Source: an uncultured Rickettsiales bacterium
Lineage (GTDB): Bacteria > Pseudomonadota > Alphaproteobacteria > Rs-D84
Direction: 5' to 3'
NCBI GenBank assembly: GCA_947176385.1
Contig: CAMWQN010000002.1
Span: 8,245-72,244, forward strand
DNA length: 64,000 nt
Shown here: positions 693-41,166 of the stretch, one piece after another
Layout of the letters: each line of letters starts with the position of its first letter
How positions within the stretch are numbered: the first letter of the stretch is position 1
The notes under the pieces: model-generated
What the model was told of the DNA's origin: nothing
Seen by the model: only the letters and a program-made list of their open reading frames with translations
Databases searched by the model: none
Translations under genes and position numbers: made by a program

Positions 693-721
693 TTGTTTTT
701 AATCAAAACATAAATTATACT
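693..721 (+). promoter_or_regulatory. Sigma70-like promoter TTGTTT-N17-TATACT
   Basis: TTGTTT at 693-698, a 17-nt spacer, and TATACT at 716-721. The same TTGTWT-N17-TATAAT design precedes the paralogous leaders at 22819-22847 and 41138-41166. Confidence 0.55.
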
Positions 722-739
722 TTCCATTGAACCAAGCAT

Positions 740-971
740 GGATGACTGGGTTCGGGACCTGAAAAATCCCATATAGAGACGATGCGGGTAATTACCATCA
801 TCGTAATCCGACACTACGTCGGTGCATTATTGCGCCGTTGTTTTATGAACCCGACTGTATTCCGGTCGGGGGTCTGTGATTATAAAACAGGACACGTCCA
901 AAGGTCACAGGGGTCATTTCTCTATATGATTTTTTCAATCCCCGACCGCCGGTTTTCATGGCGGTTTTTTT
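740..971 (+). promoter_or_regulatory. Structured 5' leader L1 with terminator/antiterminator architecture
   Basis: P1 is TGAAAAA (760-766) paired with TTTTTCA (931-937). Hairpin X1:X' is CCCGAC (850-855) with GGTCGGGGG (864-872). X2 CCCCGACC (940-947) overlaps the terminator ACCGCC-N9-GGCGGT plus T-run (945-971). Confidence 0.6.
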
Positions 972-1003
972 AGTAATCAATTTACAAACGGGGGAATAAT
1001 AAA

Positions 1004-1699
1004 ATGAAGAAAACTCAATTGATTATCGTATTGGCGGCTATATTCATAACCGTGTCACACACCAAATTATACGCAGACGCCTGTACAAACCTGGGGGCAA
1101 CAACCGGTGCCACATGTTACACTGGCAATCTGGCATCAACAAACATACGGACAGCTACGAACTGTACCAGCGCATCATCAGGATGCACATACAAGGCATG
1201 CAGTAACACTTGTCGTTGTATCAGCACCGCATGTCCATCAAATACAACTAATTGCTCTAGCACCACATGCAACCCAATATGGGGCGACATAGACAGTTCT
1301 ACACATATTCAAACCGGCACCAACCGCGAGCCAGACACATCCAACAACTGTAAATGCGAAAATCAAACAGACATCAATGGAAAGGTAATAAATGTATATC
1401 GTTGTGCGTCTGGATATTATGACACCAAAACAGGCATACAGCTTATTGGCGGCAAGCCATCATGCGAACAATGCCCATCACTGGGAAACAATAATGTCCC
1501 AGGACAATCTAATACAGGTGTAACAAGCAATCCAGCCAACAAAGGCATTACATCATGCTATATCCCATATAATACGGAAATAACAGATAATACCGGCACA
1601 TACATATTCTATAAAACCGGTATTCTTGCTACCAGTGGTGGATGCAGCTATTCAAATATTGGTGGGACTATAGATATGCCACAACTGCCAATGCCATAA
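1004..1699 (+). CDS. Small secreted cysteine-rich protein, paralogue of 21885-22580 and 40216-40890
   Basis: N-terminal signal peptide and many Cys residues. It carries the shared C-terminal module CxxGYY..C.QCP...SCYIP..DNTGTY..C.YS. Confidence 0.8.
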   Translation: MKKTQLIIVLAAIFITVSHTKLYADACTNLGATTGATCYTGNLASTNIRTATNCTSASSGCTYKACSNTCRCISTACPSNTTNCSSTTCNPIWGDIDSSTHIQTGTNREPDTSNNCKCENQTDINGKVINVYRCASGYYDTKTGIQLIGGKPSCEQCPSLGNNNVPGQSNTGVTSNPANKGITSCYIPYNTEITDNTGTYIFYKTGILATSGGCSYSNIGGTIDMPQLPMP

Positions 1700-3724: not shown

Positions 3725-3752
3725 TTGCAAGCCCTGTTTTTTATGTTATAAT
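3725..3752 (+). promoter_or_regulatory. Promoter TTGCAA-N16-TGtTATAAT (extended -10)
   Basis: TTGCAA at 3725-3730 and TGTTATAAT at 3744-3752. The same TTATGTTATAAT string recurs at 15818-15829. Confidence 0.55.
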
Positions 3753-3784
3753 TCATATTGCAACGGGAAACCGGCGCATGGGTG

Positions 3785-3912
3785 TAAGAACCCACAAACG
3801 AAAATATTTACTCCACTTTATCGGTTGGAGGGCTGTGATATATCTAAATAAGCAGCACTATACGTTTGTAGTTCTTAACCTCCAGCCGTTTGGTTTTTAC
3901 CAGACGGTTTTT
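3785..3912 (+). promoter_or_regulatory. Structured 5' leader C1 upstream of an HTH gene
   Basis: P1 is TAAGAAC (3785-3791) paired with GTTCTTA (3871-3877). X' is GGTTGGAGG (3823-3831). X2 CCTCCAGCC (3879-3887) overlaps the terminator CCGTTTGG-N6-CCAGACGG plus T-run (3886-3912). Confidence 0.55.
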
Positions 3913-3943
3913 GTTTAATCAAAAAAAAGATGGAGATAAAGAA

Positions 3944-4270
3944 ATGACACTAACAATCAATGCACGAACAATCGGATTCGCCCTGCAACGTGCACGACAC
4001 AGTACATCAATATTGTCAGACGATGTGGCACAATTGCTGAAAATATCACGCGCTGAATTAACCCTCTTTGAAAATGGCGAGGTTGAAATTCCCCCACACA
4101 TCCTTGAATCACTGTTTGCATTGGGCTTAATAACAATGCACACACGTTCCAGAATACGGGACTATAACCGCATGGCACGACAATGGCGACATATGCATAA
4201 CCGCGCAATTGATTTGCATAATAAACTGCAAAAAATTACCGACGCCACCAGCCCAATATTAAAACAATAA
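3944..4270 (+). CDS. Small XRE-like helix-turn-helix protein
   Basis: Start chosen at the ATG with GGAG RBS; the ORF track begins at 3890. HTH-like segment is ILSDDVAQLLKISRAELTLFENGEVEIP. Confidence 0.6.
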   Translation: MTLTINARTIGFALQRARHSTSILSDDVAQLLKISRAELTLFENGEVEIPPHILESLFALGLITMHTRSRIRDYNRMARQWRHMHNRAIDLHNKLQKITDATSPILKQ

Positions 4271-21884: not shown

Positions 21885-22580
21885 TTATTCATAATAGCAA
21901 CGGCTGCCTGCCGGAACAATCTGATATACACCTGTAACATCATAACCTTGACTTTCGGTTAAATAGCAGCCTTGGATTGTTTCATTTGCCCCAGGGTCTG
22001 ATTCCCCTGCTTTTGTGGTGGCACTCATTGGACACTGCGTACATCCCGTCATTCCCATTGCACCAAAACCCTCAATATAATTTTCCTTAATCGCGGAACT
22101 GGAACCATAAAAACCTGCAGCGCAACGATGTTTTGAACGTTTTTCCCACGTACAGGTACTGGTATTACATTCGGTCCACGTATTTGTCTGATATCCATTC
22201 CAAGAATCTTTCCAGGCATCCTCGTCATACTCAATTTCTGAATTTGGGTCACATGTCTTTGCCACACTGCACGGTTGGCATACATATACACCACCATTTC
22301 TATTGCTGCACCCCATTGCCACAAAATCTGGGTCCAACGTCAGGATATAGCCATCTTCGCACATATGACATATCTGAAATTTTCCGGCTTTACCAGTTGA
22401 TTTATTTATATAGCACAACGAATACGGAAACATATACTGTTTACAATGTGCAATATTCTGTGCGGGTTCTGCAATTGATGCACACGTTTCGTTATCAGAT
22501 GGCGCCATTCCGCATTGTGCATATGCTAATTCGGTCGTTAAAAATGTTGACATTGTAACGATTAAGAGTTTTTTATTCAT
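21885..22580 (-). CDS. Small secreted cysteine-rich protein, paralogue of 1004-1699 and 40216-40890
   Basis: Signal peptide present. The shared C-terminal module is RCAAGFYG..GCTQCP..GCYL..D.TG.Y..C.YE. Confidence 0.8.
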   Translation of the reverse strand: MNKKLLIVTMSTFLTTELAYAQCGMAPSDNETCASIAEPAQNIAHCKQYMFPYSLCYINKSTGKAGKFQICHMCEDGYILTLDPDFVAMGCSNRNGGVYVCQPCSVAKTCDPNSEIEYDEDAWKDSWNGYQTNTWTECNTSTCTWEKRSKHRCAAGFYGSSSAIKENYIEGFGAMGMTGCTQCPMSATTKAGESDPGANETIQGCYLTESQGYDVTGVYQIVPAGSRCYYE

Positions 22581-22812
22581 TATTCAATCTCCTGCTGTTG
22601 TAAAAACAAAACCACCATTTTTGGTGGTCAGGAGGTTGATGACAATTACAGGAATTGTGTTGCGTATTGGATATTTCGCAAACCCTCCTGACCCTGGGTC
22701 AGGAGTTTGTTTTTCGTCTGAACATCAAAACAGGCGCAATACGCGCCACAAGAATCCATTCTGACGCCTGTATAGAGGTCATCACACCCCATCAACGGAA
22801 TCCCCGTTGACA
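22581..22812 (-). promoter_or_regulatory. Structured 5' leader L2, homologous to 40891-41131
   Basis: See findings for detail. Elements are P1 TGATGAC/GTCATCA, the X1:X' hairpin, and X2 overlapping the terminator ACCACC-N6-GGTGGT plus U-tract. Confidence 0.65.
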
Positions 22813-22818
22813 TTATTT

Positions 22819-22847
22819 ATTATATAATGCCGGGCATATAAATACAA
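22819..22847 (-). promoter_or_regulatory. Sigma70-like promoter TTGTAT-N17-TATAAT
   Basis: On the minus strand, TTGTAT runs 22847->22842 and TATAAT runs 22824->22819, with a 17-nt spacer. Confidence 0.6.
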
Positions 22848-23095: not shown

Positions 23096-25858
23096 TTAGA
23101 ATTTGTAATTTACCCCTATATTTAATTCCATATTTGAATAGTCTGATGCTGTTCCATATTTTGCAGATAAATAACCATCAAAAGCCCTACCCAAAGTGAC
23201 TGATAGCCCGCATTCCAATTGAGCGACATTGAAGTCTTCGACTGATTTTATATCGCCAATATCACTTATGTTCACATTATTCCCTTTGGTTGATGTAATC
23301 AAATATGAAGGTCTGATGAATAAATCTATTGCTCCTAATGATTGTGAAAAAGTAATACCAAAATCTGCCAGAATCTGATTTATATTATCATACTCAACCG
23401 TTCGTCCATAGACATCGGTCAAACTATCCAAGGAGAGATTTATATATGTTATGCCAGCCACAGGAGCAAATTTAAAGCCAGTCCCAACATCAATTAAATA
23501 TTGTGTTTTAAGCATTATGCCTGTTTGCGTCCCGGAAAAATCTGTCATGAATCCATCATCTGTTTTGACCTCAGACTGTAATAATCCACCATAAACCCCA
23601 GCAAAAACATTAAAGTTTTTAGGATTATAACGCATATAGCCACCAAATATTTGGCTGTGACCGTCTATCCAACTTTCTAAATCGGCATGAATTTCTTTGG
23701 CTTTACCAGAGAAAGAATGTTTAGCCTCTCGTATTGAACCCATTACTCCCATAGTCCAATTGTTGCCCAGCGATTTGTTGTATCCGAAATCACCCCCGAA
23801 TACCTTTGAATCCATTTCTGCAATCGTATCATTCTTTATTTGGGCAAAAACAGGTGTTATCCATATATTGCTGTTTTTCGGTACATAAAATGCGCGATTC
23901 ATTGAATTATGCGTTTGATCTAACATTGCGCTTTGCATGGCGGCATATGCCACTATTTCTGGATAAGAACGTACAATGTGCGGTAAATCTGGCTCAATAT
24001 CATTATTATCGTCATTATTATCATTATTGTCATTAAAGTCGCCATCATAATCAGGATTTTTGATATTATTCATTTCCAATGCCCAGGTTTTGGCGCTTCC
24101 ATCATAGAAATTCACATCATACATATATGGGCTGCCGAATACGCGAAATACGCTGAAAGAATTGTCATTTCCCTGACCAGTAGCCGTCGCAAACACAATA
24201 TCCTGTTTGCCACGAATATCCGTATCATCTAATGCATGGACCACAAGCTTTGTTTGCCCCGTAACATCCCCATCTATATTTAGAATATCAGCCGTCATAT
24301 CGGCTGGATTTACATTCAGATGAATATAGGAATTGCTTTGCGTAATCAATGCACCCAGACGAACACTTTCAATATACGTGTTTGCCATATCAAATGTGGC
24401 GTTATTCAATGTCATAATTGGGTATTTATCGTTTGACAGGAATTGTCCTTTGCCATATATGCCATTATCAAATTTCATGACGGCATTATTTATATTTATG
24501 TTACCCGCGTTAATAACAAAATTGTTGATATATAACGCCCCTGTTCCATCACCACTGATATTAATATCATATGGGTTCGCGCCATCTATGTTGTCATTAA
24601 AAGTATACGAACCCATATTTTGCAAATCAAAGTTTAATGCCTTACCATTCGTACCGCCCATATATATGGCATTATAATTAACACCATTTTTATCAATTAT
24701 ATGATTTCCACTGAACTTGTAATTATTATTATCGACACGAAATGATATGTTATTTTCCGAATAAATCGCACCACCACATGCATCGCCATTTGCGGAATTC
24801 GCGTAATTGTTAATGAAATTGCCGGATATTCTGTCTATTTGTCCCAATGTATAAATTGCACCACCCATTGCCTGGGATTCTCCGACCGCATAGTTATTGA
24901 TAAAATCCGCCTGGATATTGCTTAGTACCGTTGATGTGCCGGGCAGGATGCTATAAAACATCGCACCACCGCTGGCATGTGATTTAGAAACAGCATGATT
25001 GTCGATAAAATTTCCTGTAATATCAGATAATTTATATTGTTCATCATTTGCATCTTGAACTATATAAATTGCGCCACCGGTAGCCGCTTGGTCTGCATTA
25101 ACCGAATTGCTGATAAAATCTGCATTTATTTTTCCTGGAACCCCATTAACATATAATGCACCACCACGCGCGTCCCATGTCGCATTGATATAATTTGCAA
25201 TAAAGTTTGCATTTATGCTGGTTTGTATTTCATAAGTCTTATCATTTGTTCCGTTATAAATCGCACCACCATATCCGGATTTTGAGCCTGATATATAATT
25301 CCCTATGAAATTTCCAGAAATATGCTCTATTTCACCTCGGTCACCATTGCTTCCACGGGCACTGTAAATTGCCCCACCCATTGCATAATTACTTGCAGTC
25401 ATAATTCCATTATTAATAAAATCCCCATATAATTCCCGAATAAGGCTGGTATTATGTAACGCACCACCGTCAACCGAGCTATTTATTTCATGGGACGTAA
25501 TTTTGTTTGATATAAAATCCATGTATATTTTGTTTTCCCATGTGGAAACCTGTGTGGTCTTATCTGTGGTATTACGAACATATCCAATCATTTTTCCCAT
25601 TATCGGTGTAATGTTCGCGCCAACCGACGAAACCGAATAGTTCCAGTTTTGGTCAACAATGCCATCATTGGTTTCCATATATGTGGTTATGTTACCAGGT
25701 GATGATGTTTGTTGAAAATTCATTTCATATCCACTGGGGATTGATGATTGTCCGTTCGCATATAAATAGTCCAATGTAGGCGTATAATTTTCAAAATCAA
25801 ATGCCCCAAAAGCACTGTTAACAGATAAAATAAGCGGTAATATAAATATTTTTTGCAT
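23096..25858 (-). CDS. Autotransporter with polymorphic-membrane-protein (Pmp)-type repeats
   Basis: Signal peptide present. Seven alternating FxxN / GGA[ILM] repeats (for example GNFIGNY..YGGAIYNG). C-terminal beta-barrel region ends in ..GVNYKF. Confidence 0.85.
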   Translation of the reverse strand: MQKIFILPLILSVNSAFGAFDFENYTPTLDYLYANGQSSIPSGYEMNFQQTSSPGNITTYMETNDGIVDQNWNYSVSSVGANITPIMGKMIGYVRNTTDKTTQVSTWENKIYMDFISNKITSHEINSSVDGGALHNTSLIRELYGDFINNGIMTASNYAMGGAIYSARGSNGDRGEIEHISGNFIGNYISGSKSGYGGAIYNGTNDKTYEIQTSINANFIANYINATWDARGGALYVNGVPGKINADFISNSVNADQAATGGAIYIVQDANDEQYKLSDITGNFIDNHAVSKSHASGGAMFYSILPGTSTVLSNIQADFINNYAVGESQAMGGAIYTLGQIDRISGNFINNYANSANGDACGGAIYSENNISFRVDNNNYKFSGNHIIDKNGVNYNAIYMGGTNGKALNFDLQNMGSYTFNDNIDGANPYDINISGDGTGALYINNFVINAGNININNAVMKFDNGIYGKGQFLSNDKYPIMTLNNATFDMANTYIESVRLGALITQSNSYIHLNVNPADMTADILNIDGDVTGQTKLVVHALDDTDIRGKQDIVFATATGQGNDNSFSVFRVFGSPYMYDVNFYDGSAKTWALEMNNIKNPDYDGDFNDNNDNNDDNNDIEPDLPHIVRSYPEIVAYAAMQSAMLDQTHNSMNRAFYVPKNSNIWITPVFAQIKNDTIAEMDSKVFGGDFGYNKSLGNNWTMGVMGSIREAKHSFSGKAKEIHADLESWIDGHSQIFGGYMRYNPKNFNVFAGVYGGLLQSEVKTDDGFMTDFSGTQTGIMLKTQYLIDVGTGFKFAPVAGITYINLSLDSLTDVYGRTVEYDNINQILADFGITFSQSLGAIDLFIRPSYLITSTKGNNVNISDIGDIKSVEDFNVAQLECGLSVTLGRAFDGYLSAKYGTASDYSNMELNIGVNYKF

Positions 25859-26118
25859 TGCGATACCCCCATGTATAAAAAAAGACCGTCATTGGATGAC
25901 GGTCGGGGAGTTCACAAATCATTCTGTTATTGATTCCATTGGTCTTTCGGCGAACCGTATTATATAACCAACAGCCCCCCGACCAGTATATTTGGTCAGG
26001 GATAAATAACGATGCAAAAACAACAGAATGTCGGATTAACGACGCTTCTAAGATTTGCACCGAACAGAATAGACCTGTGAAAGTCCCGAACACGTTTCCC
26101 AACGAGTTCACAAAAAAT
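25859..26118 (-). promoter_or_regulatory. Structured 5' leader L3, homologous to 36753-37020
   Basis: P1 is TTCACA/TGTGAA. X1:X' is CCCTGACCA with TGGTCGGGGGG. X2 CTCCCCGACC overlaps the terminator GACCGTCAT-N3-ATGACGGTC plus U-tract. Confidence 0.65.
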
Positions 26119-28385: not shown

Positions 28386-30977
28386 TTAAAAATTATACCG
28401 CAGTTTCAGCATTCCTGTCTGGGACGTATAGTTTTGGTGTAAATCAATATCATAATTTACAGAAACCGTCAGCCCACGGTACAACACCGACAGCCCCATT
28501 CCAAATTCACCACCCAGACGTGATAATCTGTCTGCATTTACGATATATCCTGCGGCACCTGGTATCAGAACTGTTGCTGTCACGGCATCCGACACAAAAT
28601 CATATGTTGCGGCTGCACGCAATTCGGGGTGCAACATCAATGAACGCGTCGCCATAATATCAAACGTGTACTTTAACCCTGCAACCCCGGTCAAGAAATT
28701 GTTATCCGCAGGTTCAACATGGGCAATGCCATTATTATATCCATCCTGGGTTATATACAGATAACGCACCCCGACCGATGGCGTAACCCCAGACGCGAAA
28801 TCATAGCCTAATGCCAGTTGTCCACCGTATGAATCCACATCATAATCAGACGACATATGAACACCGAACAAATCTGTATGTTCCGTATAGTCTGCAAATG
28901 TATAATTAAGTGCACCATTTATAAACCACTGGTTCGGTTTATACTGGGCATATGCAAACAAAGTATCCGTTTTTATATCTGTTTTATGACCCCCGGCATG
29001 AACATCGGTATCACCATGCGCATACCCCAGTCCAAACATGTATTTACGATTAAATGTTGCATCAACACCGAATGCAGCCCCACGTGTATCCCCATGGAAT
29101 GCACCATTCATTTTGGACCGGTTGATTAAACCGTGTGCCCAGACACCGCTGCCGATTGTGACAAAGTCACCACCACTGCGCCCGGTCGCGCCACCCGCAA
29201 TACGTGATGCGACCAGTGACAAAACCTGATTCTGGACTGTTGTTGACACAGAATGTATTACAGGTTTATTAACAGGCGCAACCTTAGCCGTTTCGGCTTC
29301 GACATATTCAATGTCACCAGATGCCAGCGCATTCTGTGCCGCAATTGATACATCCGCCAGCGGTCCACCAACATTTACCAATCCCACCAATGCAGATGCC
29401 GCCGGCACAGACAATCCGATTTCAGACACCACCTGTTCCGATTTTTTGGCAGTAATAACAACGCCATCTGCGCCATTATTTGTAACATCAAACAACAAAC
29501 CTGCATTTATACGGTCAAAGTTATTATCAGATGTAAATATTTGATACGTGCCGGCGCATGCCACATTCAGATTCAATTCTGCATTGTCACCAAAGACAAC
29601 ATCACCAAACAACCGACCAAATTCACGCGCACTGATTACATCCGCATTCACGACGCCATTGATATTGATTTCAGACTGTTGAACAACACCGGTCCCCAGA
29701 TTCAAGACAGCACCATCAGACACTTCAAACGTGCCTTCGCCCAGCACACCGCCACCCAGTGTTGTTTCACCCCCAGATATTAAAATCGTACCATTATTAT
29801 AAATATCGTTAGCATTGTTGCCAACACGATTGCCAGAAAACACATTACGCCCAGCAAGTGTGATTGTTGCATTCTGTGCGTTATAAATTGCCCCGCCCTG
29901 CGCCGCGCTATAGTGATTTGCAAACACAGAATCTGTAATTGAAGCACTATTCTCTATTCCTACATGCCCACCGGTAAATTTTCCATTTTTTATATCTGCA
30001 TTATCCAATGTGATACCACGCGCGTCATCGGCAATATTAACATTACCGCCATTGACATTCAGATTATTCAAGCCCGTATAAAATGCCCCACCGTCGGCAC
30101 CATCAAAGTCTGTAATCCGTGTTGCATTCCACGTTGCGCCATCTGTCAATGTAACTGTCGCCTGATTAACATTTAATTTATTTATATCCGCAGGCTTTTT
30201 ATCATACCCCACAACTGTATTCCCAGTCCAATAAGAATCCGCCCCAGACAATACAACGTCAACCGTCGCATCAACCGATGTTCCAGATGTGGCCTGGTCA
30301 TAATTAAATTCTATATCGCCATTAATTTTTGTACTGTGCACGCCGGATTTATTAACAATCACCTGGGCACCGCCACGTGTTATAATCGCACGTTCTGCAC
30401 CATTGATAGAAACATCACCATCTAATTCAACGATACCTTCGCTGAATGCAAGAATAGCGTTCGGCGCATCAATATTAATTTTGTCACCTGTGATTTTAAG
30501 GCTGGCTCTGTCGTCCATACTGACGTTACCACCCAAAGTCTTATTCTGAACCCAAATTCCACCATAACCCGAATTTTTTATATTAATTTCACCCCCCGTA
30601 ATATTTATATGCCCATTCTGGTCAATCCAAACAGCCCCCATCGGGTCTTTATTACCACCCACCATACTGATTGTATCGCCAGTTATATTGACAGTCCCAC
30701 CACTGGCATAAATAACATCATATCGCCCACCCAATAAATCAATCTTATTCCCAATCAAATCCAGATTTCCATTTACCACATAAACAGCATCCGATACAGA
30801 CGAAAGCCCTAATTTTATATCATCAACATCCAATACAGAATGATTGCCATTTAATACAGTAACTATTTTCAATTGACCATTATTATATTTATCATTCAGA
30901 TTTATAACATCCGCCATTGCCGGCATAACCAACAATGCCAGTAACACAGATACGGCATACAAAATATTGTGGGACAT
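28386..30977 (-). CDS. Autotransporter adhesin-like protein
   Basis: Start placed at MSHNILYAVSVLLALLVMPAMA with AAAGGAG RBS; the ORF track begins at 31040. The passenger is Gly/Asn/Thr-rich and beta-helix-like with one GGAIYN motif. The C-terminal barrel ends in ..LKLRYNF. Confidence 0.8.
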   Translation of the reverse strand: MSHNILYAVSVLLALLVMPAMADVINLNDKYNNGQLKIVTVLNGNHSVLDVDDIKLGLSSVSDAVYVVNGNLDLIGNKIDLLGGRYDVIYASGGTVNITGDTISMVGGNKDPMGAVWIDQNGHINITGGEINIKNSGYGGIWVQNKTLGGNVSMDDRASLKITGDKINIDAPNAILAFSEGIVELDGDVSINGAERAIITRGGAQVIVNKSGVHSTKINGDIEFNYDQATSGTSVDATVDVVLSGADSYWTGNTVVGYDKKPADINKLNVNQATVTLTDGATWNATRITDFDGADGGAFYTGLNNLNVNGGNVNIADDARGITLDNADIKNGKFTGGHVGIENSASITDSVFANHYSAAQGGAIYNAQNATITLAGRNVFSGNRVGNNANDIYNNGTILISGGETTLGGGVLGEGTFEVSDGAVLNLGTGVVQQSEININGVVNADVISAREFGRLFGDVVFGDNAELNLNVACAGTYQIFTSDNNFDRINAGLLFDVTNNGADGVVITAKKSEQVVSEIGLSVPAASALVGLVNVGGPLADVSIAAQNALASGDIEYVEAETAKVAPVNKPVIHSVSTTVQNQVLSLVASRIAGGATGRSGGDFVTIGSGVWAHGLINRSKMNGAFHGDTRGAAFGVDATFNRKYMFGLGYAHGDTDVHAGGHKTDIKTDTLFAYAQYKPNQWFINGALNYTFADYTEHTDLFGVHMSSDYDVDSYGGQLALGYDFASGVTPSVGVRYLYITQDGYNNGIAHVEPADNNFLTGVAGLKYTFDIMATRSLMLHPELRAAATYDFVSDAVTATVLIPGAAGYIVNADRLSRLGGEFGMGLSVLYRGLTVSVNYDIDLHQNYTSQTGMLKLRYNF

Positions 30978-31169
30978 CTCTTCTCCTTTCTTGGCAATAT
31001 CAGCGTATTTCAGTGCACCCACAAACACAATAAGAACCAAATACTAAAAAACGCCCCACCTGGGGCGTTTAAATTTTGGTTGCGCACGGCGTGCAAATTT
31101 CGAACTGATTTATTGGAAATAAGACAAAAGATTGATGTGTTAAAAAATCTGCCACTTGTTCAAGTGATT

Positions 31170-34787: not shown

Positions 34788-36752
34788 TCAATCAATATCC
34801 ATATTATACACAGAATACACACTTCCATTATATTCAACATTCAACGCCTTTTTTCTGGATTCTGGTATCATATCACCATATAACACATGATTTCCATATT
34901 GTACTGACAAACTGGGGTGCGTGCGCCAGTCATTATGCAACCATACGGAATATTGTCCAAATCGCATAACCCGACCACAATCAGTCAAACTGTCGGCGCC
35001 ACGCCCATACCCGATTGTCATTAAATTATCCGGACACTTGTTACGTTTACCACTGTTACCATAATTTGTATAATTTATATCATTCCAATACCCAGGTCCA
35101 ACATTCGCGCACTGCGTCGCACGTGCCGTTGCCAAATACGTACCCGCATCACACTTTATCTGACATTCATTAATCGACTGCGGTGCTGTATTATCAGGTG
35201 CACGGTCAGCATAATAATCCGGACAATCTTGACAAGAATTCCCAGACGCATACTGTCCCATCGGACATACGATTTTGCCATCAATACACACAAAATCAGC
35301 TGGACAAACCGTACACACATCACCATCACGAAAATATCCGTCATTACACCGCCAGGGGCAATCGTTACCATCAGGACTGCCTGCACCAATATAAATTGCA
35401 TTTTCCGGTGCATTTGTACATGCTTTATTATACTTAAACCGCATATACTCCCCTAAATGTACAGCATTCGCCAGATATCGACCGACGGTATCTGTCTGAA
35501 CCCAGTAAATATCAGAGCTCCAATATCTATCTCCTTGCCATGGCAAATCTTTAGTATATACGCCATCAGGTGTTTCAAACAACGCCCCCCCTATCCTACA
35601 ATTGGCAGCGTTTGTAATAAGCCCACTAACAGAATATGTAGTCACCCTTAAATTGTCAGCATTAATCAGCCTGTCCTCAGATGGCAATACAGATTCCAGT
35701 ACACCAGCATCAAATTCAGGACACCGAAACATTGTATTATTATTGCAATAATTGGCACCAGTGCACACAGAACACATATTGCCATTCAACCAATATCCAT
35801 CAAAACAATTAATTTGTGTGCTGCCGGCGGGACAAGTTGAATTCTGCGGACAGACATCACACCGATTGACATTCTTATAAAATCCTGAAACACAATCAAA
35901 ATCCGTCACAGATCTGCACGTTGAATTTTCCACAGGACACATTTCGCATACGGCACCATTATCAAAAAAGCCCGGATTACAATTTGGTGGCATACCAGAA
36001 TCGCCCGACGCATACGATAGACATTGACCATCTGAATGCCAGAACAACCCATCCGGACATTTTTGTTCCTTGTGTCCGGGACATACAACACCATCGGGAC
36101 ATGGAACACATTCTGCACCCATTTTATAAAATCCGGGGGCGCAATATTGCATATAATTGCTAATTGTCGCGATACCATCTGGACAATAATATTCACCCGG
36201 ACACTGAAAACAATGGTATGAACTTTTATAATAACCTTCGATACACGTAACAGATGAAATCGTTGAACCAGCGGGACAATGCAATTCAGCCCCACAGTCC
36301 ATACAATACGTACCATTCCAATTATAATACAAATACCCAGCACCACAACTGATTAATTTTTCACCATCACAAACATGCCCAGCACAAGACCGACACATAA
36401 ACCCATCACGAAACCAGCCGTCATCACAATGAAATGTATCGGTCCCACCCACGCATGTTGCATTATTAACACATTGTGAACAAACACCGTTATATAAATA
36501 TGTTCCAGGCATGCACGAAAATTCTGTGGGTCCTGTACATGTGCTGTTTGGTGGGCATGCCAGACATTGGTTATTACCATCTGCATAAAATCCGTCATTA
36601 CAAGAATATGTTTCACCATCACATGTTGCGTTATACATACAGTTGACACAATTACCACCAGATAAATACTGATTCACATCACATGTTGCAGCATTGGCAA
36701 CACCACCTGCGCCCACCAACAACAGTACAACAGAAACCAACAGTCGTATCAT
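34788..36752 (-). CDS. Secreted protein made of furin/VSP-like cysteine-rich repeats
   Basis: Start placed at MIRLLVSVVLLLVGAGGVANA with AAGGGGA RBS. The ORF-track start at 36782 falls inside the leader terminator. Repeats have the form C..G.Y...G.C..CP.NSTC throughout. Confidence 0.8.
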   Translation of the reverse strand: MIRLLVSVVLLLVGAGGVANAATCDVNQYLSGGNCVNCMYNATCDGETYSCNDGFYADGNNQCLACPPNSTCTGPTEFSCMPGTYLYNGVCSQCVNNATCVGGTDTFHCDDGWFRDGFMCRSCAGHVCDGEKLISCGAGYLYYNWNGTYCMDCGAELHCPAGSTISSVTCIEGYYKSSYHCFQCPGEYYCPDGIATISNYMQYCAPGFYKMGAECVPCPDGVVCPGHKEQKCPDGLFWHSDGQCLSYASGDSGMPPNCNPGFFDNGAVCEMCPVENSTCRSVTDFDCVSGFYKNVNRCDVCPQNSTCPAGSTQINCFDGYWLNGNMCSVCTGANYCNNNTMFRCPEFDAGVLESVLPSEDRLINADNLRVTTYSVSGLITNAANCRIGGALFETPDGVYTKDLPWQGDRYWSSDIYWVQTDTVGRYLANAVHLGEYMRFKYNKACTNAPENAIYIGAGSPDGNDCPWRCNDGYFRDGDVCTVCPADFVCIDGKIVCPMGQYASGNSCQDCPDYYADRAPDNTAPQSINECQIKCDAGTYLATARATQCANVGPGYWNDINYTNYGNSGKRNKCPDNLMTIGYGRGADSLTDCGRVMRFGQYSVWLHNDWRTHPSLSVQYGNHVLYGDMIPESRKKALNVEYNGSVYSVYNMDID

Positions 36753-37020
36753 CAAAATCCCCTTGTAAAAAAAGACCGTCATCAGAACACGACGGTCGGG
36801 GTGGTTCGAAAATCATCTTATCATTGATTCTGTCAGTCTTTCGGCGGAACCGTGTTTTATAACCGACAGCCCCCCGACTGAGATAGTCAGGGATAAATAA
36901 CGATACAAAGTCACAGGAAATTATTGGAATAACGATGACCTATGCTTTTGCACCGGATAAGAATAGCCTTCGACAGCCCCGAACCTGTGTCCCCACAAGT
37001 TCGTTTAAATAATAACATAA
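36753..37020 (-). promoter_or_regulatory. Structured 5' leader L4, homologous to 25859-26118
   Basis: P1 is TCGAA/TTCGA. X1:X' is CCCTGACT with AGTCGGGGGG. X2 CCACCCCGACC overlaps the terminator GACCGTC-N10-GACGGTC plus U-tract. Confidence 0.65.
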
Positions 37021-37104
37021 ATCATGATGGTCGTCCACCACATTTGTGTGGAGATAGATTTTTTAACGACAATGCGTTTTTCATGCGATGGACAACCATA
37101 AGAA

Positions 37105-37260
37105 CAAAAAAATGCCACCTAAAAAAACACAGGCGGCTGGAGGTTGAGACCAATAATCAAGTAGTATTGTCGGTTTATTCAATATATTCACCGAACTCCA
37201 ACCAGTGTTGGATTACAATATCCGCAATGCGGATACGACTTGATATGGGGTCTCAATCCC
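37105..37260 (-). promoter_or_regulatory. Structured leader module C3, stacked upstream of L4
   Basis: P1 is TTGAGACC (37256->37249) paired with GGTCTCAA (37151->37144). The hairpin is CCAAC-ACTG-GTTGG. X2 CCTCCAGCC (37143->37135) overlaps the terminator GCCGCCT-N10-AGGTGGC plus U-tract. Confidence 0.55.
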
Positions 37261-40215: not shown

Positions 40216-40890
40216 TTATGGTTTAATAGGTTCCAATTCAACAATTTCACCGCCGGTTAACCCATTGGAATATTCACAATTTTCTGTATATGTACCACTG
40301 CCAGTTGTATCTGAGAAAGATGTTCCTGCAGGCAAATAGCAACTTGTGACATATTTGCTGCCGGCTGCACTGGTACCGTATGTGCCACTGCCAGATTGTG
40401 GACATCTGGTACAACCTGATGTTCCATTGGTACTGGAACCATAATATCCTGCGGCGCAACGATATGTAGTTGATATTACAGCACAACCACCTGTACATGT
40501 GCATGAACGTCTTGCCTGTTGTTCGTATCCAGCGGTTCCAGTTGCAGTGAAACCGATATCACTGGCGCATGTACCGCATGATATGCAACATTGATACACC
40601 AGTTCATATGTAGTGTTACACGAATTGCTGAGTTCTGATATTGATACTTGTTTTCTTTCTGTGCCACTTGGGCATGATGTACAACTTTGAAAACGTATTA
40701 CATTTCCCGAACCACTTTTATAACATACATTTGTATGGTTGCCTTCCCGACATGTTGTTATTGCCTCCATTGGGGCAGCAGTACATGTTGTTGACGTACA
40801 CACGCCATTATCGAGTGAAAGTACAGCATTGGCTGGTTTTTCTATTGGCATGATTGTTATCATTGCCAATATAATTAGTTTATGTTTCAT
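40216..40890 (-). CDS. Small secreted cysteine-rich protein, paralogue of 1004-1699 and 21885-22580
   Basis: The shared C-terminal module is YRCAAGYYGSS..GCTRCP...SCYLPAGTSFSDTTGSGTYTENCEYS. Confidence 0.8.
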   Translation of the reverse strand: MKHKLIILAMITIMPIEKPANAVLSLDNGVCTSTTCTAAPMEAITTCREGNHTNVCYKSGSGNVIRFQSCTSCPSGTERKQVSISELSNSCNTTYELVYQCCISCGTCASDIGFTATGTAGYEQQARRSCTCTGGCAVISTTYRCAAGYYGSSTNGTSGCTRCPQSGSGTYGTSAAGSKYVTSCYLPAGTSFSDTTGSGTYTENCEYSNGLTGGEIVELEPIKP

Positions 40891-41131
40891 TATTCAATCT
40901 CCTGTTTTTTCGTAATGAAAAACCACCCAAAATTCAGGTGGTCAGGAGGTTGATGACAATCCATAGAATTGTGTGCTTATTCGTTATATTCGCAACCCTC
41001 CTGCCCACAAATTGGTCAGGAGTTGTTTTTCCGTCGTAACAGTAAAATTGGCGCAAAATGCGCGCCCCTATAAACATATTCCGACGCTATGGCAGAGGTC
41101 ATCACACCTCATCATTGGAATTCCCAATGAC
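40891..41131 (-). promoter_or_regulatory. Structured 5' leader L5, homologous to 22581-22812
   Basis: Same helices as L2 with compensatory changes. The terminator is ACCACC-N9-GGTGGT plus U-tract (40922-40942). Confidence 0.65.
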
Positions 41132-41137
41132 AAAATT

Positions 41138-41166
41138 ATTATATACGCTATATATGATTAAAACAA
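41138..41166 (-). promoter_or_regulatory. Sigma70-like promoter TTGTTT-N17-TATAAT
   Basis: On the minus strand, TTGTTT runs 41166->41161 and TATAAT runs 41143->41138. Confidence 0.6.

Follow-up and report, generated by a model that had tools for sequence, protein, structure and literature searches.

L1 is a structured leader RNA of 310 bases that lies directly 5' of a gene for a small cysteine-rich protein in the window, which is the whole 64-kb stretch of DNA that was analysed. The 231-amino-acid protein has no Pfam match, and its N-terminal hydrophobic stretch looks like a signal peptide, which suggests that the protein is secreted. The gene had been taken for the third of a set of cysteine-rich paralogues, and this agrees with its 26-35% identity to the ORFs 21885-22580 (-) and 40216-40890 (-). 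The leader has a folding z of -4.4, ends in a predicted terminator and can, as modelled, adopt two mutually exclusive folds. The analysis relied on profile HMMs and hand-defined structures. When the sequence was checked, every element listed in an earlier, sequence-only reading of this DNA was found in place. The features of the leader and its gene are listed below.

693-721, + strand: putative promoter TTGTTT-N17-TATACT (sequence)
729-753, + strand: P0, hairpin at the 5' end of the RNA (GAACCAAG...CUGGGUUC), present in both leader types
754-757, + strand: GGGA, pairing with UCCC 939-942 inside X2 (P1a) or with the nearby UCCC 767-770
760-766, + strand: P1b 5' strand UGAAAAA (P1 of the sequence-only reading), pairing with 931-937
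770-779, + strand: P1c 5' strand CAUAUAGAGA, forming a 10-bp helix with 919-928
780-847, + strand: central arm, with hairpin 780-803, CCGAC 808-812 paired with GUCGG 818-822, and GC hairpin 820-837 followed by a U-rich tail
821-836, + strand: hairpin GGTGC-ATTATT-GCGCC (sequence)
850-855, + strand: X1 CCCGAC (sequence)
850-857, + strand: extended X1 (CCCGACUG), forming an 8-bp hairpin with 863-870
864-872, + strand: X' GGTCGGGGG (GGUCGGGGG), 5' strand of the closing helix in the sRNA-Xcc1 model (cmscan alignment)
875-909, + strand: P2 hairpin with asymmetric internal loop (UUAUAAAACA / AAA), matching P2 of RF02221
911-932, + strand: P3 hairpin GGGUCA ... UGAUUU of the Xcc1 model, arms 911-916/927-932
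931-937, + strand: P1b 3' strand UUUUUCA, equal to junction J3/1 of the Xcc1 model
939-947, + strand: X2 as 3' strand of the closing helix (UCCCCGACC), overlapping the terminator 5' arm
940-947, + strand: X2 CCCCGACC (sequence)
944-971, + strand: intrinsic terminator GACCGCCG-loop-UGGCGGUU with U run (scan call)
945-971, + strand: terminator ACCGCC-N9-GGCGGT with T run (sequence)
990-995, + strand: Shine-Dalgarno GGGGGA, 8 nt upstream of the ATG (sequence)
1004-1699, + strand: putatively regulated gene for the 231-amino-acid cysteine-rich protein (ORF list)

The hexamers proposed as the promoter are present at 693-721, 140 nt upstream of X', and the -10 box has the same spacing to the first hairpin in most of the homologues that align this far upstream, but the -35 hexamer is weak, agreeing with TTGACA at three of six positions only, and the promoter scan made no call there. 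An intrinsic terminator with eight pairs and a T run was called by a scan at 944-966. All 54 aligned leaders keep this terminator, with pairing of 97% for type A and 95% for type B, the two leader types described below. The hairpin at 820-837 in the central arm was also called terminator-like; the arm is homologous to P4/P5 of the type B leaders, which covary. Between the terminator and the ATG, no + strand promoter was called by the promoter scan and the distance from the U run to the ATG is about 32 nt, so expression of the gene would need read-through. The Shine-Dalgarno sequence GGGGGA is complementary to UCCCC of X2.

Copies of the leader in the window and in other genomes

Two leader types were distinguished: type A, which includes L1, and type B, which includes L2 and L5. 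L1 is matched by two profiles whose member sequences come from other genomes: 12 related leaders of gut Alphaproteobacteria (E 7.9e-49) and 39 leaders of the L2/L5 type, the latter matching 821-1003 (E 1.3e-5); blastn gave no similarity between L1 and L2/L5. L1 had been described as a diverged member of one family with L2 and L5, and both the match to the 39-leader profile and the same order of helices in the two types bear this out. The family has at least eight copies within the window, which include, besides L1, the following.

3745-3946, + strand: short type-B-like leader before a 107-amino-acid ORF (nhmmer E 1e-14)
15825-16044, + strand: short type-B-like leader before a 78-amino-acid ORF with its ATG at 16045 (nhmmer E 1.5e-9)
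22581-22830, - strand: sister leader L2, type B (sequence/profile)
25859-26110, - strand: type A leader before the autotransporter gene 23096-25858 (-) (nhmmer E 1e-17; gene by Pfam)
36783-36990, - strand: type A leader before a 664-amino-acid ORF, 34788-36782 (-) (nhmmer E 6e-14)
37095-37260, - strand: short type-B-like leader with terminator but lacking its own ORF, upstream of and in tandem with the leader at 36783-36990 (nhmmer E 5e-9)
40891-41145, - strand: sister leader L5, type B (sequence/profile)

The 107-amino-acid ORF has a weak Pfam match to HTH_31 (helix-turn-helix), below the curated cut-off. Seven of the eight copies are located at a fixed distance and in a fixed orientation ahead of a start codon, and the orphan at 37095-37260 indicates that the RNA can exist without a gene directly behind it. 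A metagenome scan with GGTCATN{4,10}TRTGATTTT returned 120 unrelated loci with no leader among them.

Helices of the two folds

In fold I, the presumed ground state, 754-779 would pair with 919-942 through P1a, P1b and P1c. The pairing TGAAAAA/TTTTTCA, proposed earlier as P1, is strongly supported: as P1b it is fully paired (100%) in the 13 type A leaders, where three of its seven pairs have changed on both sides. P1c is 96.9% paired in these 13 leaders, with compensatory changes in seven of its ten pairs, and P1a is 100% paired (13 sequences) with one-sided changes only. GGGA and UCCC 767-770 form a small hairpin in which the loop is the P1b strand, and a local hairpin of this type is also found in phage copies of sRNA-Xcc1 (GGUG-CUCAAAA-CACC). 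At the 5' end, P0 is 100% paired in type B, where all seven pairs have changed on both sides, and 72% paired in type A on the MAFFT alignment.

The strands of P1b and P1c are hypervariable between copies and fit their own partners (duplex test, self -14.5 vs non-self -4.4 kcal/mol). In the type A duplex test of the same strands, the values are -14.3 and -5.9 kcal/mol, respectively, and L1 ranks its own strand first. Across 41 type B leaders, 94% of the cells of fold I are paired, compared with 36-50% when the partners are slid; 33 pairs have changed on both sides, and the covariation score is 0.389 vs 0.163 for shuffled alignments, with none of 500 shuffles as high. In type A (13 leaders), 93% of cells are paired vs 37-56% after sliding. 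Folding without constraints gives fold I as the structure of lowest energy for 36 of the 41 type B leaders and for 7 of the 13 type A leaders. Fold I is more stable than fold II by 7.7 kcal/mol in L1, and its advantage averages 14.8 kcal/mol among type A leaders and 10.5 kcal/mol among type B leaders.

Fold II is built on X', which is complementary to both X1 and X2. All nine positions of X':X2 are paired (864-872 with 939-947), and this helix and the terminator stem exclude each other, as both use G944-C947. X':X2 is paired at 92% in type A and 96.3% in type B, with two compensatory pairs in the latter. The sequence GGTCGGGG occurs six times in total on the two strands of the window (0.66 expected; none of 100 shuffles reached six), and five of these occurrences are within the three type A leaders. 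The joint change of X1, X' and X2, which the sequence-only reading had noted between L1 and L2/L5, recurs in at least five sequence classes among about 60 leaders; other co-varying classes are CUCCAACC / GGUUGGAGG / CCUCCAACC, GGGCAGGAGG / CCUCCUGCC and GGUCGGGAA / UUCCCGACC. Three X classes coexist in the window, and the classes are related by descent. Whatever the class, X2 stays complementary to X' over 9-10 nt, some of which lie beyond the terminator stem, and at one locus (L054) a U-to-C change in X' compensates an A-to-G change in X2, so that X' tracks X2 and not X1. There is next to no variation of the X elements inside a class, and the co-variation therefore rests on few class-level events. 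This near-invariance, together with the hypervariability of P1b/P1c, points to an extra sequence-specific constraint on X.

The two other helices of fold II differ in their relation to fold I. P2 is compatible with both folds, and its distal stem is 100% paired with two of three pairs compensatory. In type A, P3 is 98.7% paired and shows hardly any change; among type B sequences, one of its pairs is A-U in 37 and U-A in four. P3 and P1c are mutually exclusive, because the loop and 3' arm of P3 make up the P1c 3' strand (919-928), and the P3 arms are conserved and covarying although they are unpaired in fold I. Fold I is thus supported by extensive covariation, and fold II is supported by X':X2, limited P3 covariation and a match to the RF02221 consensus. 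Pairing of X2 with the ribosome-binding site beyond the generic CUCC:GGAG was considered as a side hypothesis; in type B, the conserved AUUGAA after the Shine-Dalgarno sequence ignores changes in the strand preceding X2.

Relation to sRNA-Xcc1 and c4

sRNA-Xcc1 is a small RNA of Xanthomonas integrons that is also found in prophages and genomic islands and has been in Rfam since 2012; to our knowledge, no mode of action has been described. Judged from its sequence, the 3' half of L1 is related to this RNA (RF02221), and X':X2 corresponds to its closing helix. L1 864-955 aligns with model positions 1-87, the full length, at 37.1 bits (E 1.6e-5), which is below the curated gathering threshold of 53 bits. 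Among the homologues, one exceeds this threshold (L050:2188-2279, 56.4) and others score 46.5 (L035) and 34.4 (L043); E. coli prophage copies of sRNA-Xcc1 score 79.8 bits. Type B leaders gave no match to the RF02221 model. The features of RF02221 seen in L1 are the three-way junction, the 9-bp G+C-rich closing helix (X':X2), P2 with its AUA..AA / AAA internal loop, P3 and, ahead of the 3' strand, a junction rich in U. The sequence-only reading had missed this identity of the X':X2 domain, as well as the P1c helix, the gap in stability between the folds and five more copies in the window.

A position just 5' of a gene on the same strand is common to sRNA-Xcc1 and the leaders. Phage copies precede an ORF6N, BRO-N, KilA-N or Ant gene, and they also have, further upstream, strands that can pair with the junction and with the P3 loop. 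The leaders have three features beyond RF02221: X' is sequestered by a hairpin with X1, a central arm is present, and X2 is overlapped by an intrinsic terminator. In the phage copies, a non-terminator hairpin occupies the position of the leader terminator, and a terminator is located upstream of the junction instead. In Xanthomonas, sRNA-Xcc1 lies just 5' of symE on the same strand (bioRxiv 10.1101/2025.06.18.660453). The published sRNA-Xcc1 is described as a trans-acting small RNA of 88 nt, whereas here it is a leader; in Xanthomonas it is abundant and 88 nt long (PMC2996969), and in EHEC it was found as an 89-nt RNA with low ribosome coverage (PMC5331693). The sRNA-Xcc1 coordinates of PMC5331693 fall on a hok/sok locus in NZ_CP008957.1 (EDL933), and the assembly differs.

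The phage copies of sRNA-Xcc1 have the layout of the P1 c4 antisense RNA ahead of antirepressor genes. In P1/P7 (immI operon; RF01695, C4), the regulatory c4 RNA is co-transcribed with the gene that it controls, as is the case here, and its antisense segments are complementary to upstream and downstream copies on the same transcript, a topology also found in X1-X'-X2. The order of the c4 segments is reportedly a1 b1 - a' b' - a2 b2, as described by Citron and Schuster in 1990 and 1992. P1/P7 heteroimmunity involves specificity classes with matched changes, and the X classes resemble these. Upstream complementary copies on the same transcript are present in the leaders, since P1b/P1c are self-specific and X1 is complementary to X'. 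Antisense to the downstream ribosome-binding site is found in the phage Xcc1 copies; in the leaders, no self-specific target was found from the terminator to ATG+40, and L1 ranks its own region 10th of 13. The Rfam C4 model has no match in the window, where a scan at gathering thresholds found two tRNAs only. The downstream partner in the leaders overlaps the terminator, unlike the ribosome-binding site in c4, and pairing would therefore activate rather than repress. It is known that c4 controls Ant (PMC8201110), and a c4-a1b1 motif is listed by Weinberg et al. 2010 (PMC2864571).

A candidate attenuator and its alternatives

The leaders also resemble attenuators (trp-type, T-box and on-type riboswitches), in which the middle one of three successive segments can pair with the one before or the one after it, an intrinsic terminator overlaps the third, and no promoter lies between terminator and gene. 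In L1, an intrinsic terminator is located between the putative promoter and the start codon, and an alternative helix sharing 944-947 with it co-varies across classes. Unlike attenuators, the leaders have no conserved leader peptide, tRNA-binding features or identified ligand, and a 20-bp long-range helix encloses the whole element. A leader peptide was rejected, as several type B copies have GCG, ACG or UUG in place of the AUG that starts the frame, and covariation of the helices takes no account of codons. T-box-like tRNA sensing was considered for the terminator 3' arm UGGUGG/UGGCGG, which could pair with NCCA, and was dropped since this arm is not conserved (UGACGG at locus L003). Candidate CsrA sites (GGA in the P0 loop and in X') are inconsistent in type A.

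We favour the reading, with a probability of roughly 0.55, that the cysteine-rich protein gene is transcribed with L1 as its 5' leader and that L1 acts as a transcription attenuator, off by default, which builds on an RNA of the sRNA-Xcc1 type. In fold I, X1 would keep X' in a local hairpin and leave X2 free, so that the last bases of X2 form the terminator at 944-966 and RNA polymerase halts at the U run, before the ribosome-binding site. In fold II, X' would capture X2 and form the three-way junction of sRNA-Xcc1 with P2 and P3; this would remove the 5' arm of the terminator and let transcription proceed into the gene. As X2 is complementary to the Shine-Dalgarno sequence, its capture may free translation as well. 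The terminator fold is far more stable, and the local X1:X' hairpin forms before X2 is made, so fold II would need a trigger to form in the cell. This could be a protein, RNA or small molecule that binds X1 or the 5' strand or stabilizes the junction. Besides the gap in stability and the early X1:X' hairpin, three points count against the attenuator: L1 scores below the Rfam threshold, the co-variation of X consists of few class-level events, and the orphan copy at 37095-37260 has no gene directly behind it.

The terminated leader might itself be the product, either as a small RNA of about 240 nt or as a processed Xcc1-like 3' domain, acting in trans like P1 c4; we consider this unlikely. The X' of finished RNAs would then pair with the nascent X2 of loci of the same class, resulting in trans antitermination, or X1 and X2 would pair with matching ribosome-binding sites. 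The 88-nt RNA abundant in Xanthomonas (PMC2996969) and the 89-nt RNA of EHEC (PMC5331693) are consistent with such a product, as are the c4 layout of the phage copies, the three X classes in one window and the orphan copy without an ORF. In addition, X is frozen within classes while the helices that act in cis only drift, as pairing among many copies would give. The type of Shine-Dalgarno sequence also follows the X class, CAGGAG being present in 33 of 38 class 1 leaders and in none of the 22 others, a link that may reflect common descent only. However, X' is paired in cis in both folds and so is not obviously free to act in trans, and the variable loops have no downstream target (type B, self -7.10 vs non-self -7.01 kcal/mol; type A, -8.78 vs -8.48 kcal/mol). 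Action in trans and the cis attenuator can coexist.

A strict riboswitch, in which the Xcc1 junction is a small-molecule aptamer and a ligand stabilizes X':X2 to turn the gene on, is improbable. E. coli phages and these leaders do share a conserved P2 internal loop and junction, and the closing helix has bases in common with the terminator, as in many on-switches, but the genes behind the leaders are heterogeneous (cysteine-rich secreted proteins, an autotransporter, small proteins and phage antirepressors), and none is metabolic or a transporter. Also, the phage junction and P3 loop serve RNA-RNA pairing, and competing strands upstream of the junction are unusual for riboswitches. Equally improbable is a constitutive structured 5' UTR, in which the long helix and the 5' hairpin stabilize the mRNA and the terminator is a fixed, leaky damper without switching. 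It would fit with fold I being the energy minimum nearly everywhere and with P0, as a 5'-terminal hairpin is a classic mRNA stabilizer. It leaves unexplained why X2 retains its complementarity to X' through the class changes, why X' follows X2 at L054 and why the P3 arms are conserved and covary. A MITE-like mobile repeat with terminal inverted repeats that mimic an RNA helix, as the copy number in 64 kb and the complementary ends might suggest, was rejected as highly implausible, because the terminal strands are unconserved and differ per copy with compensatory changes, which indicates that RNA pairing is selected and not a transposase site, only the leader strand tolerates G-U pairs, and the orientation ahead of start codons is not random.

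Beyond the attenuator at L1, a broader and rather doubtful idea is that the sRNA-Xcc1 superfamily is a c4-like, self-addressed RNA module. The loops of the phage forms would repress antirepressor translation, and in gut Alphaproteobacteria (Ca. Enterousia, order Rs-D84) the module would have been rebuilt as a multiplied terminator switch, in which the frozen X elements are address codes and finished leaders of the same class open the terminators of other loci. If true, this would be an RNA-only regulon for secreted and surface proteins in a reduced-genome organism with maybe few protein regulators.

For the RNA family, the curated 87-nt RF02221 model is part of a larger element with conserved upstream partner strands and two exclusive folds, and the c4 layout of the phage copies provides a testable mechanism for sRNA-Xcc1. 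In the tiny-genome gut Alphaproteobacteria, the Xcc1 scaffold carries a terminator and is found ahead of many genes for cysteine-rich secreted proteins and of an autotransporter gene. The genes preceded by the leaders are likely to act at the interface with host or partner cells, and since Xcc1-type terminator leaders precede this set of secreted-protein and autotransporter genes, the leader may be a main control point for it.

The L1 leader and its surroundings

Leader L1 (693-1003, +) precedes an ORF at 1004-1699 (+), which encodes a 231-aa cysteine-rich protein whose N-terminus looks, from its sequence, like a signal peptide. The Pfam scan gave no match for this product, and its paralogues (26-35% identity) are encoded at 21885-22580 (-) and 40216-40890 (-). 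Every sequence string named for L1 in the sequence-only reading was found at the position given for it:

Elements of L1 (sequence)
693-721, +: promoter-like TTGTTT-N17-TATACT
760-766 with 931-937, +: TGAAAAA with TTTTTCA
821-836, +: hairpin GGTGC-ATTATT-GCGCC
850-855, +: X1, CCCGAC
864-872, +: X', GGTCGGGGG
940-947, +: X2, CCCCGACC
945-971, +: ACCGCC-N9-GGCGGT, then a T run

For the proposed promoter, the hexamers are found at 693-721 and the -10 box is kept in homologues, but the -35 box is weak and the scan did not call this promoter. The proposed terminator was called by the scan tool at 944-966, and the 8-mer GGTCGGGG occurs six times in the whole window against 0.66 expected; both the enrichment and the terminator call are above chance. 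The promoter scan called no own promoter for gene 1004-1699, and only about 32 nt separate the U run from its ATG, so that expression would depend on read-through of the terminator. The scan tool also called a second terminator-like hairpin at 820-837. This GC hairpin belongs to the central arm and has a U-rich tail behind it (820-847), and E. coli phage copies of sRNA-Xcc1 carry a strong terminator with seven U at the matching place; the L1 hairpin is perhaps a relic, or else a second stop.

Upstream, a tRNA-Leu(CAA) gene (153-237) lies ahead of two perfect 41-nt direct repeats (287-327 and 587-627, 300 bp apart). Both terminate in GGTTCAGTCCGACCA, which resembles the tRNA-Leu(CAA) 3' end, and they look like attachment-site remnants of integration beside this gene. 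Another repeat pair, 350-369 and 679-698 at 80% identity, overlaps the region of the L1 -35 box. Directly after the L1 gene, 1816-3690 (+) holds an ORF with a weak MotA/ExbB-like match that falls under the Pfam cut-off, and an OmpA-domain ORF. ARAGORN called a tRNA-Ser with anticodon ACT at 14617-14695 (-), which the Rfam tRNA model did not report at its threshold; it is likely to be either a false positive or a degenerate gene.

Members of the leader family

No similarity between L1 and the leaders L2 (22581-22830, -) and L5 (40891-41145, -) was detected by blastn. The proposal that L1 is a third, diverged member was borne out by profile searches, in which a type B (L2/L5-like) profile built without window sequences found L1 821-1003 at E 1.3e-5. 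With the three paralogues as queries, a protein search of species-representative genomes gave 55 loci, all from uncultured gut Alphaproteobacteria, Candidatus Enterousia among them; gut Alphaproteobacteria of this type have reduced genomes of <1 Mb and belong to the order Rs-D84 (PMC12306168). Leaders of two types precede almost every one of the paralogue genes at these loci. The type A alignment (A3) contains L1 and 12 others, and the type B alignment (A4) contains L2, L5 and 39 others. A profile built from the 12 type A leaders of other genomes found L1 at E 7.9e-49, and the same type A and B profiles found five additional copies in the window:

Additional leader copies (profile)
25859-26110, -: type A, autotransporter gene behind
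36783-36990, -: type A, 664-aa ORF behind
37095-37260, -: short B-like orphan without a gene, in tandem with 36783-36990
3745-3946, +: short B-like, 107-aa ORF with a weak helix-turn-helix match
15825-16044, +: short B-like, 78-aa ORF behind

A second autotransporter is encoded in the window at 28386-31040, and a 1232-aa ORF has a borderline ankyrin-repeat match, just under the cut-off.

Two mutually exclusive folds

The unconstrained minimum-energy fold has one and the same layout in nearly every leader. In this fold I, a 5' hairpin (P0) is followed by a long interrupted helix, a central arm, the X1:X' hairpin, P2 and the terminator, and the long helix joins a 5' strand to the region immediately before X2. 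In L1, it consists of:

Long helix of fold I in L1
754-757 with 939-942, +: P1a, GGGA with UCCC
760-766 with 931-937, +: P1b, the P1 of the sequence-only reading
770-779 with 919-928, +: P1c, absent from that reading

Pairing was counted for a hand structure on MAFFT alignments, separately for the two types. In fold I, 94.0% of cells are paired in type B and 93.3% in type A, against 36-50% and 37-56% with the partners slid. The covariation scores are 0.389 (shuffled mean 0.163) and 0.407 (0.157), respectively, with 0/500 shuffles reaching the observed value in either type, and type B has two-sided changes at 33 pairs. Type A pairing reaches 100% in P1b, with compensatory changes at 3/7 pairs, and 97% in P1c, with 7/10 pairs compensatory. 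The sequences of P1b and P1c differ in almost each copy; their 3' strand is predicted to pair with its own 5' strand at -14.5 kcal/mol and with foreign ones at -4.4 in type B (-14.3 and -5.9 in type A), the own strand ranking top in both types. For L1 itself, the unconstrained minimum lies at -88.9 kcal/mol and fold I at -87.1; that minimum joins 728-775 to 941-968, so that the P0 region pairs with the 5' arm and loop of the terminator (CAUGGA with UUCAUG, GACUGGG with CCGGUU). Partial equivalents occur in the loci L035 and L050 (AUUGG with CCAAU), and this pairing is not general.

In the relaxed Rfam search, L1 864-955 is a full-length match to RF02221 (sRNA-Xcc1) at 37.1 bits (E 1.6e-5), under the threshold of 53. 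Its close homologue at locus L050 reaches 56.4 bits, over the threshold, while L035 and L043 score 46.5 and 34.4 bits. Type B leaders gave no match to RF02221; they share the layout, with P2 shortened. The closing helix of RF02221 is exactly X':X2 of L1, and this fold II encloses two further helices:

Helices inside X':X2 (RF02221 alignment)
875-909, +: P2
911-916 with 927-932, +: P3

The two folds exclude each other, because X' cannot take X1 and X2 together, X2 overlaps the terminator stem at 944-947 and P1a at 939-942, and P3 draws its loop and 3' arm from the P1c strand. In energy, fold I is favoured over fold II by 7.7 kcal/mol in L1 and by averages of 14.8 (type A) and 10.5 (type B). Pairing of X':X2 reaches 96.3% in type B, with two-sided changes at two pairs, and 92% in type A. 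One P3 pair of type B is A-U in 37 leaders and U-A in 4, and in locus L054 a U-to-C change in X' matches an A-to-G change in X2 and breaks X1:X'. The X':X2 pairing, the P3 exchange and the L054 change are evidence for selection on fold II.

The claim that X1, X' and X2 change together is confirmed by matched sets in five classes, seen in the leader alignments and window copies, and the alternative-pairing model is supported by these comparative data:

Classes of X elements (X1 / X' / X2)
CUCCUGACC / GGUCAGGAGG / CCUCCUGACC
CUCCAACC / GGUUGGAGG / CCUCCAACC (or CCUCCAGCC)
CUCCUGUC / GGGCAGGAGG / CCUCCUGCC
CCCGAC / GGUCGGGGG / UCCCCGACC
UCCCGACU / GGUCGGGAA / UUCCCGACC

Three classes co-occur in this window, the third (CUCCA[A/G]CC / GGUUGGAGG) in the three short copies.

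An sRNA-Xcc1-type RNA as a cis leader

In Xanthomonas, sRNA-Xcc1 is an 88-nt RNA (PMC2996969). Further descriptions place it ahead of symE in integron cassettes (bioRxiv 10.1101/2025.06.18.660453), ahead of an ORF6N gene in APSE phages (bioRxiv 10.1101/2020.03.17.996009) and in a genomic island of Xylella, where it forms arrays (PMC12189769). The comparison set comprised 14 distinct copies from E. coli prophages, an Acinetobacter phage, a Pasteurella phage and 10 viral contigs (L181, L192, L201, L202, L204, L206, L229, L235, L276, L291). Against RF02221, the two from E. coli prophages reach 79.8 and 79.6 bits. The four annotated phage copies (L057:1360-1612, L058:1360-1610, L059:310-576, L060:310-577) each precede an antirepressor-type gene of the same strand by 35-45 nt, and antB adjoins annotated sRNA-Xcc1 in Stx phages.

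In 13/14 distinct copies, an upstream hairpin carries CUCAAAA, the complement of the junction GUUUUGAG, in its loop. In most of the 14, the P3 loop has one complement upstream and another 27-37 nt beyond X2; at least 11 different loop sequences are matched in this way, and the downstream complement covers the ribosome-binding site in each of the four fully read copies. These phage copies thus share the a1 b1 - a' b' - a2 b2 layout of P1/P7 c4 antisense RNA, which Citron and Schuster reportedly described. Copies with this layout are in gammaproteobacterial phages. The c4 RNA is known to take part in controlling Ant (PMC8201110), and a c4-a1b1 motif is listed in PMC2864571; no paper likening phage sRNA-Xcc1 to the c4 layout was found. 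Compared with the phage RNAs, the Alphaproteobacteria leaders have kept the upstream partners (P1b, P1c), lost the downstream targets, and gained X1 and a terminator on X2. In L1, an RNA of the sRNA-Xcc1 type has been extended into a cis leader that carries a terminator.

The simplest reading, and the most likely, is that L1 acts as a default-off attenuator. X1 would lock X', leaving X2 free and allowing the terminator to form; once released, X' would capture X2 and prevent terminator formation. The Shine-Dalgarno sequence, too, is complementary to X2; it is CAGGAG in 33/38 leaders with X2 CCUCCUG and a G run in 22/22 other leaders. By this complementarity the exchange of X2 may free translation as well, although the association could equally reflect common descent.

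Under the attenuator reading, fold II would need a trigger. The X elements are frozen inside classes, whereas the cis-only helices P1b and P1c drift freely, which suggests a reader of X common to the copies, either a protein or the RNA of other copies. The leader family is multiplied ahead of genes for secreted and surface proteins.
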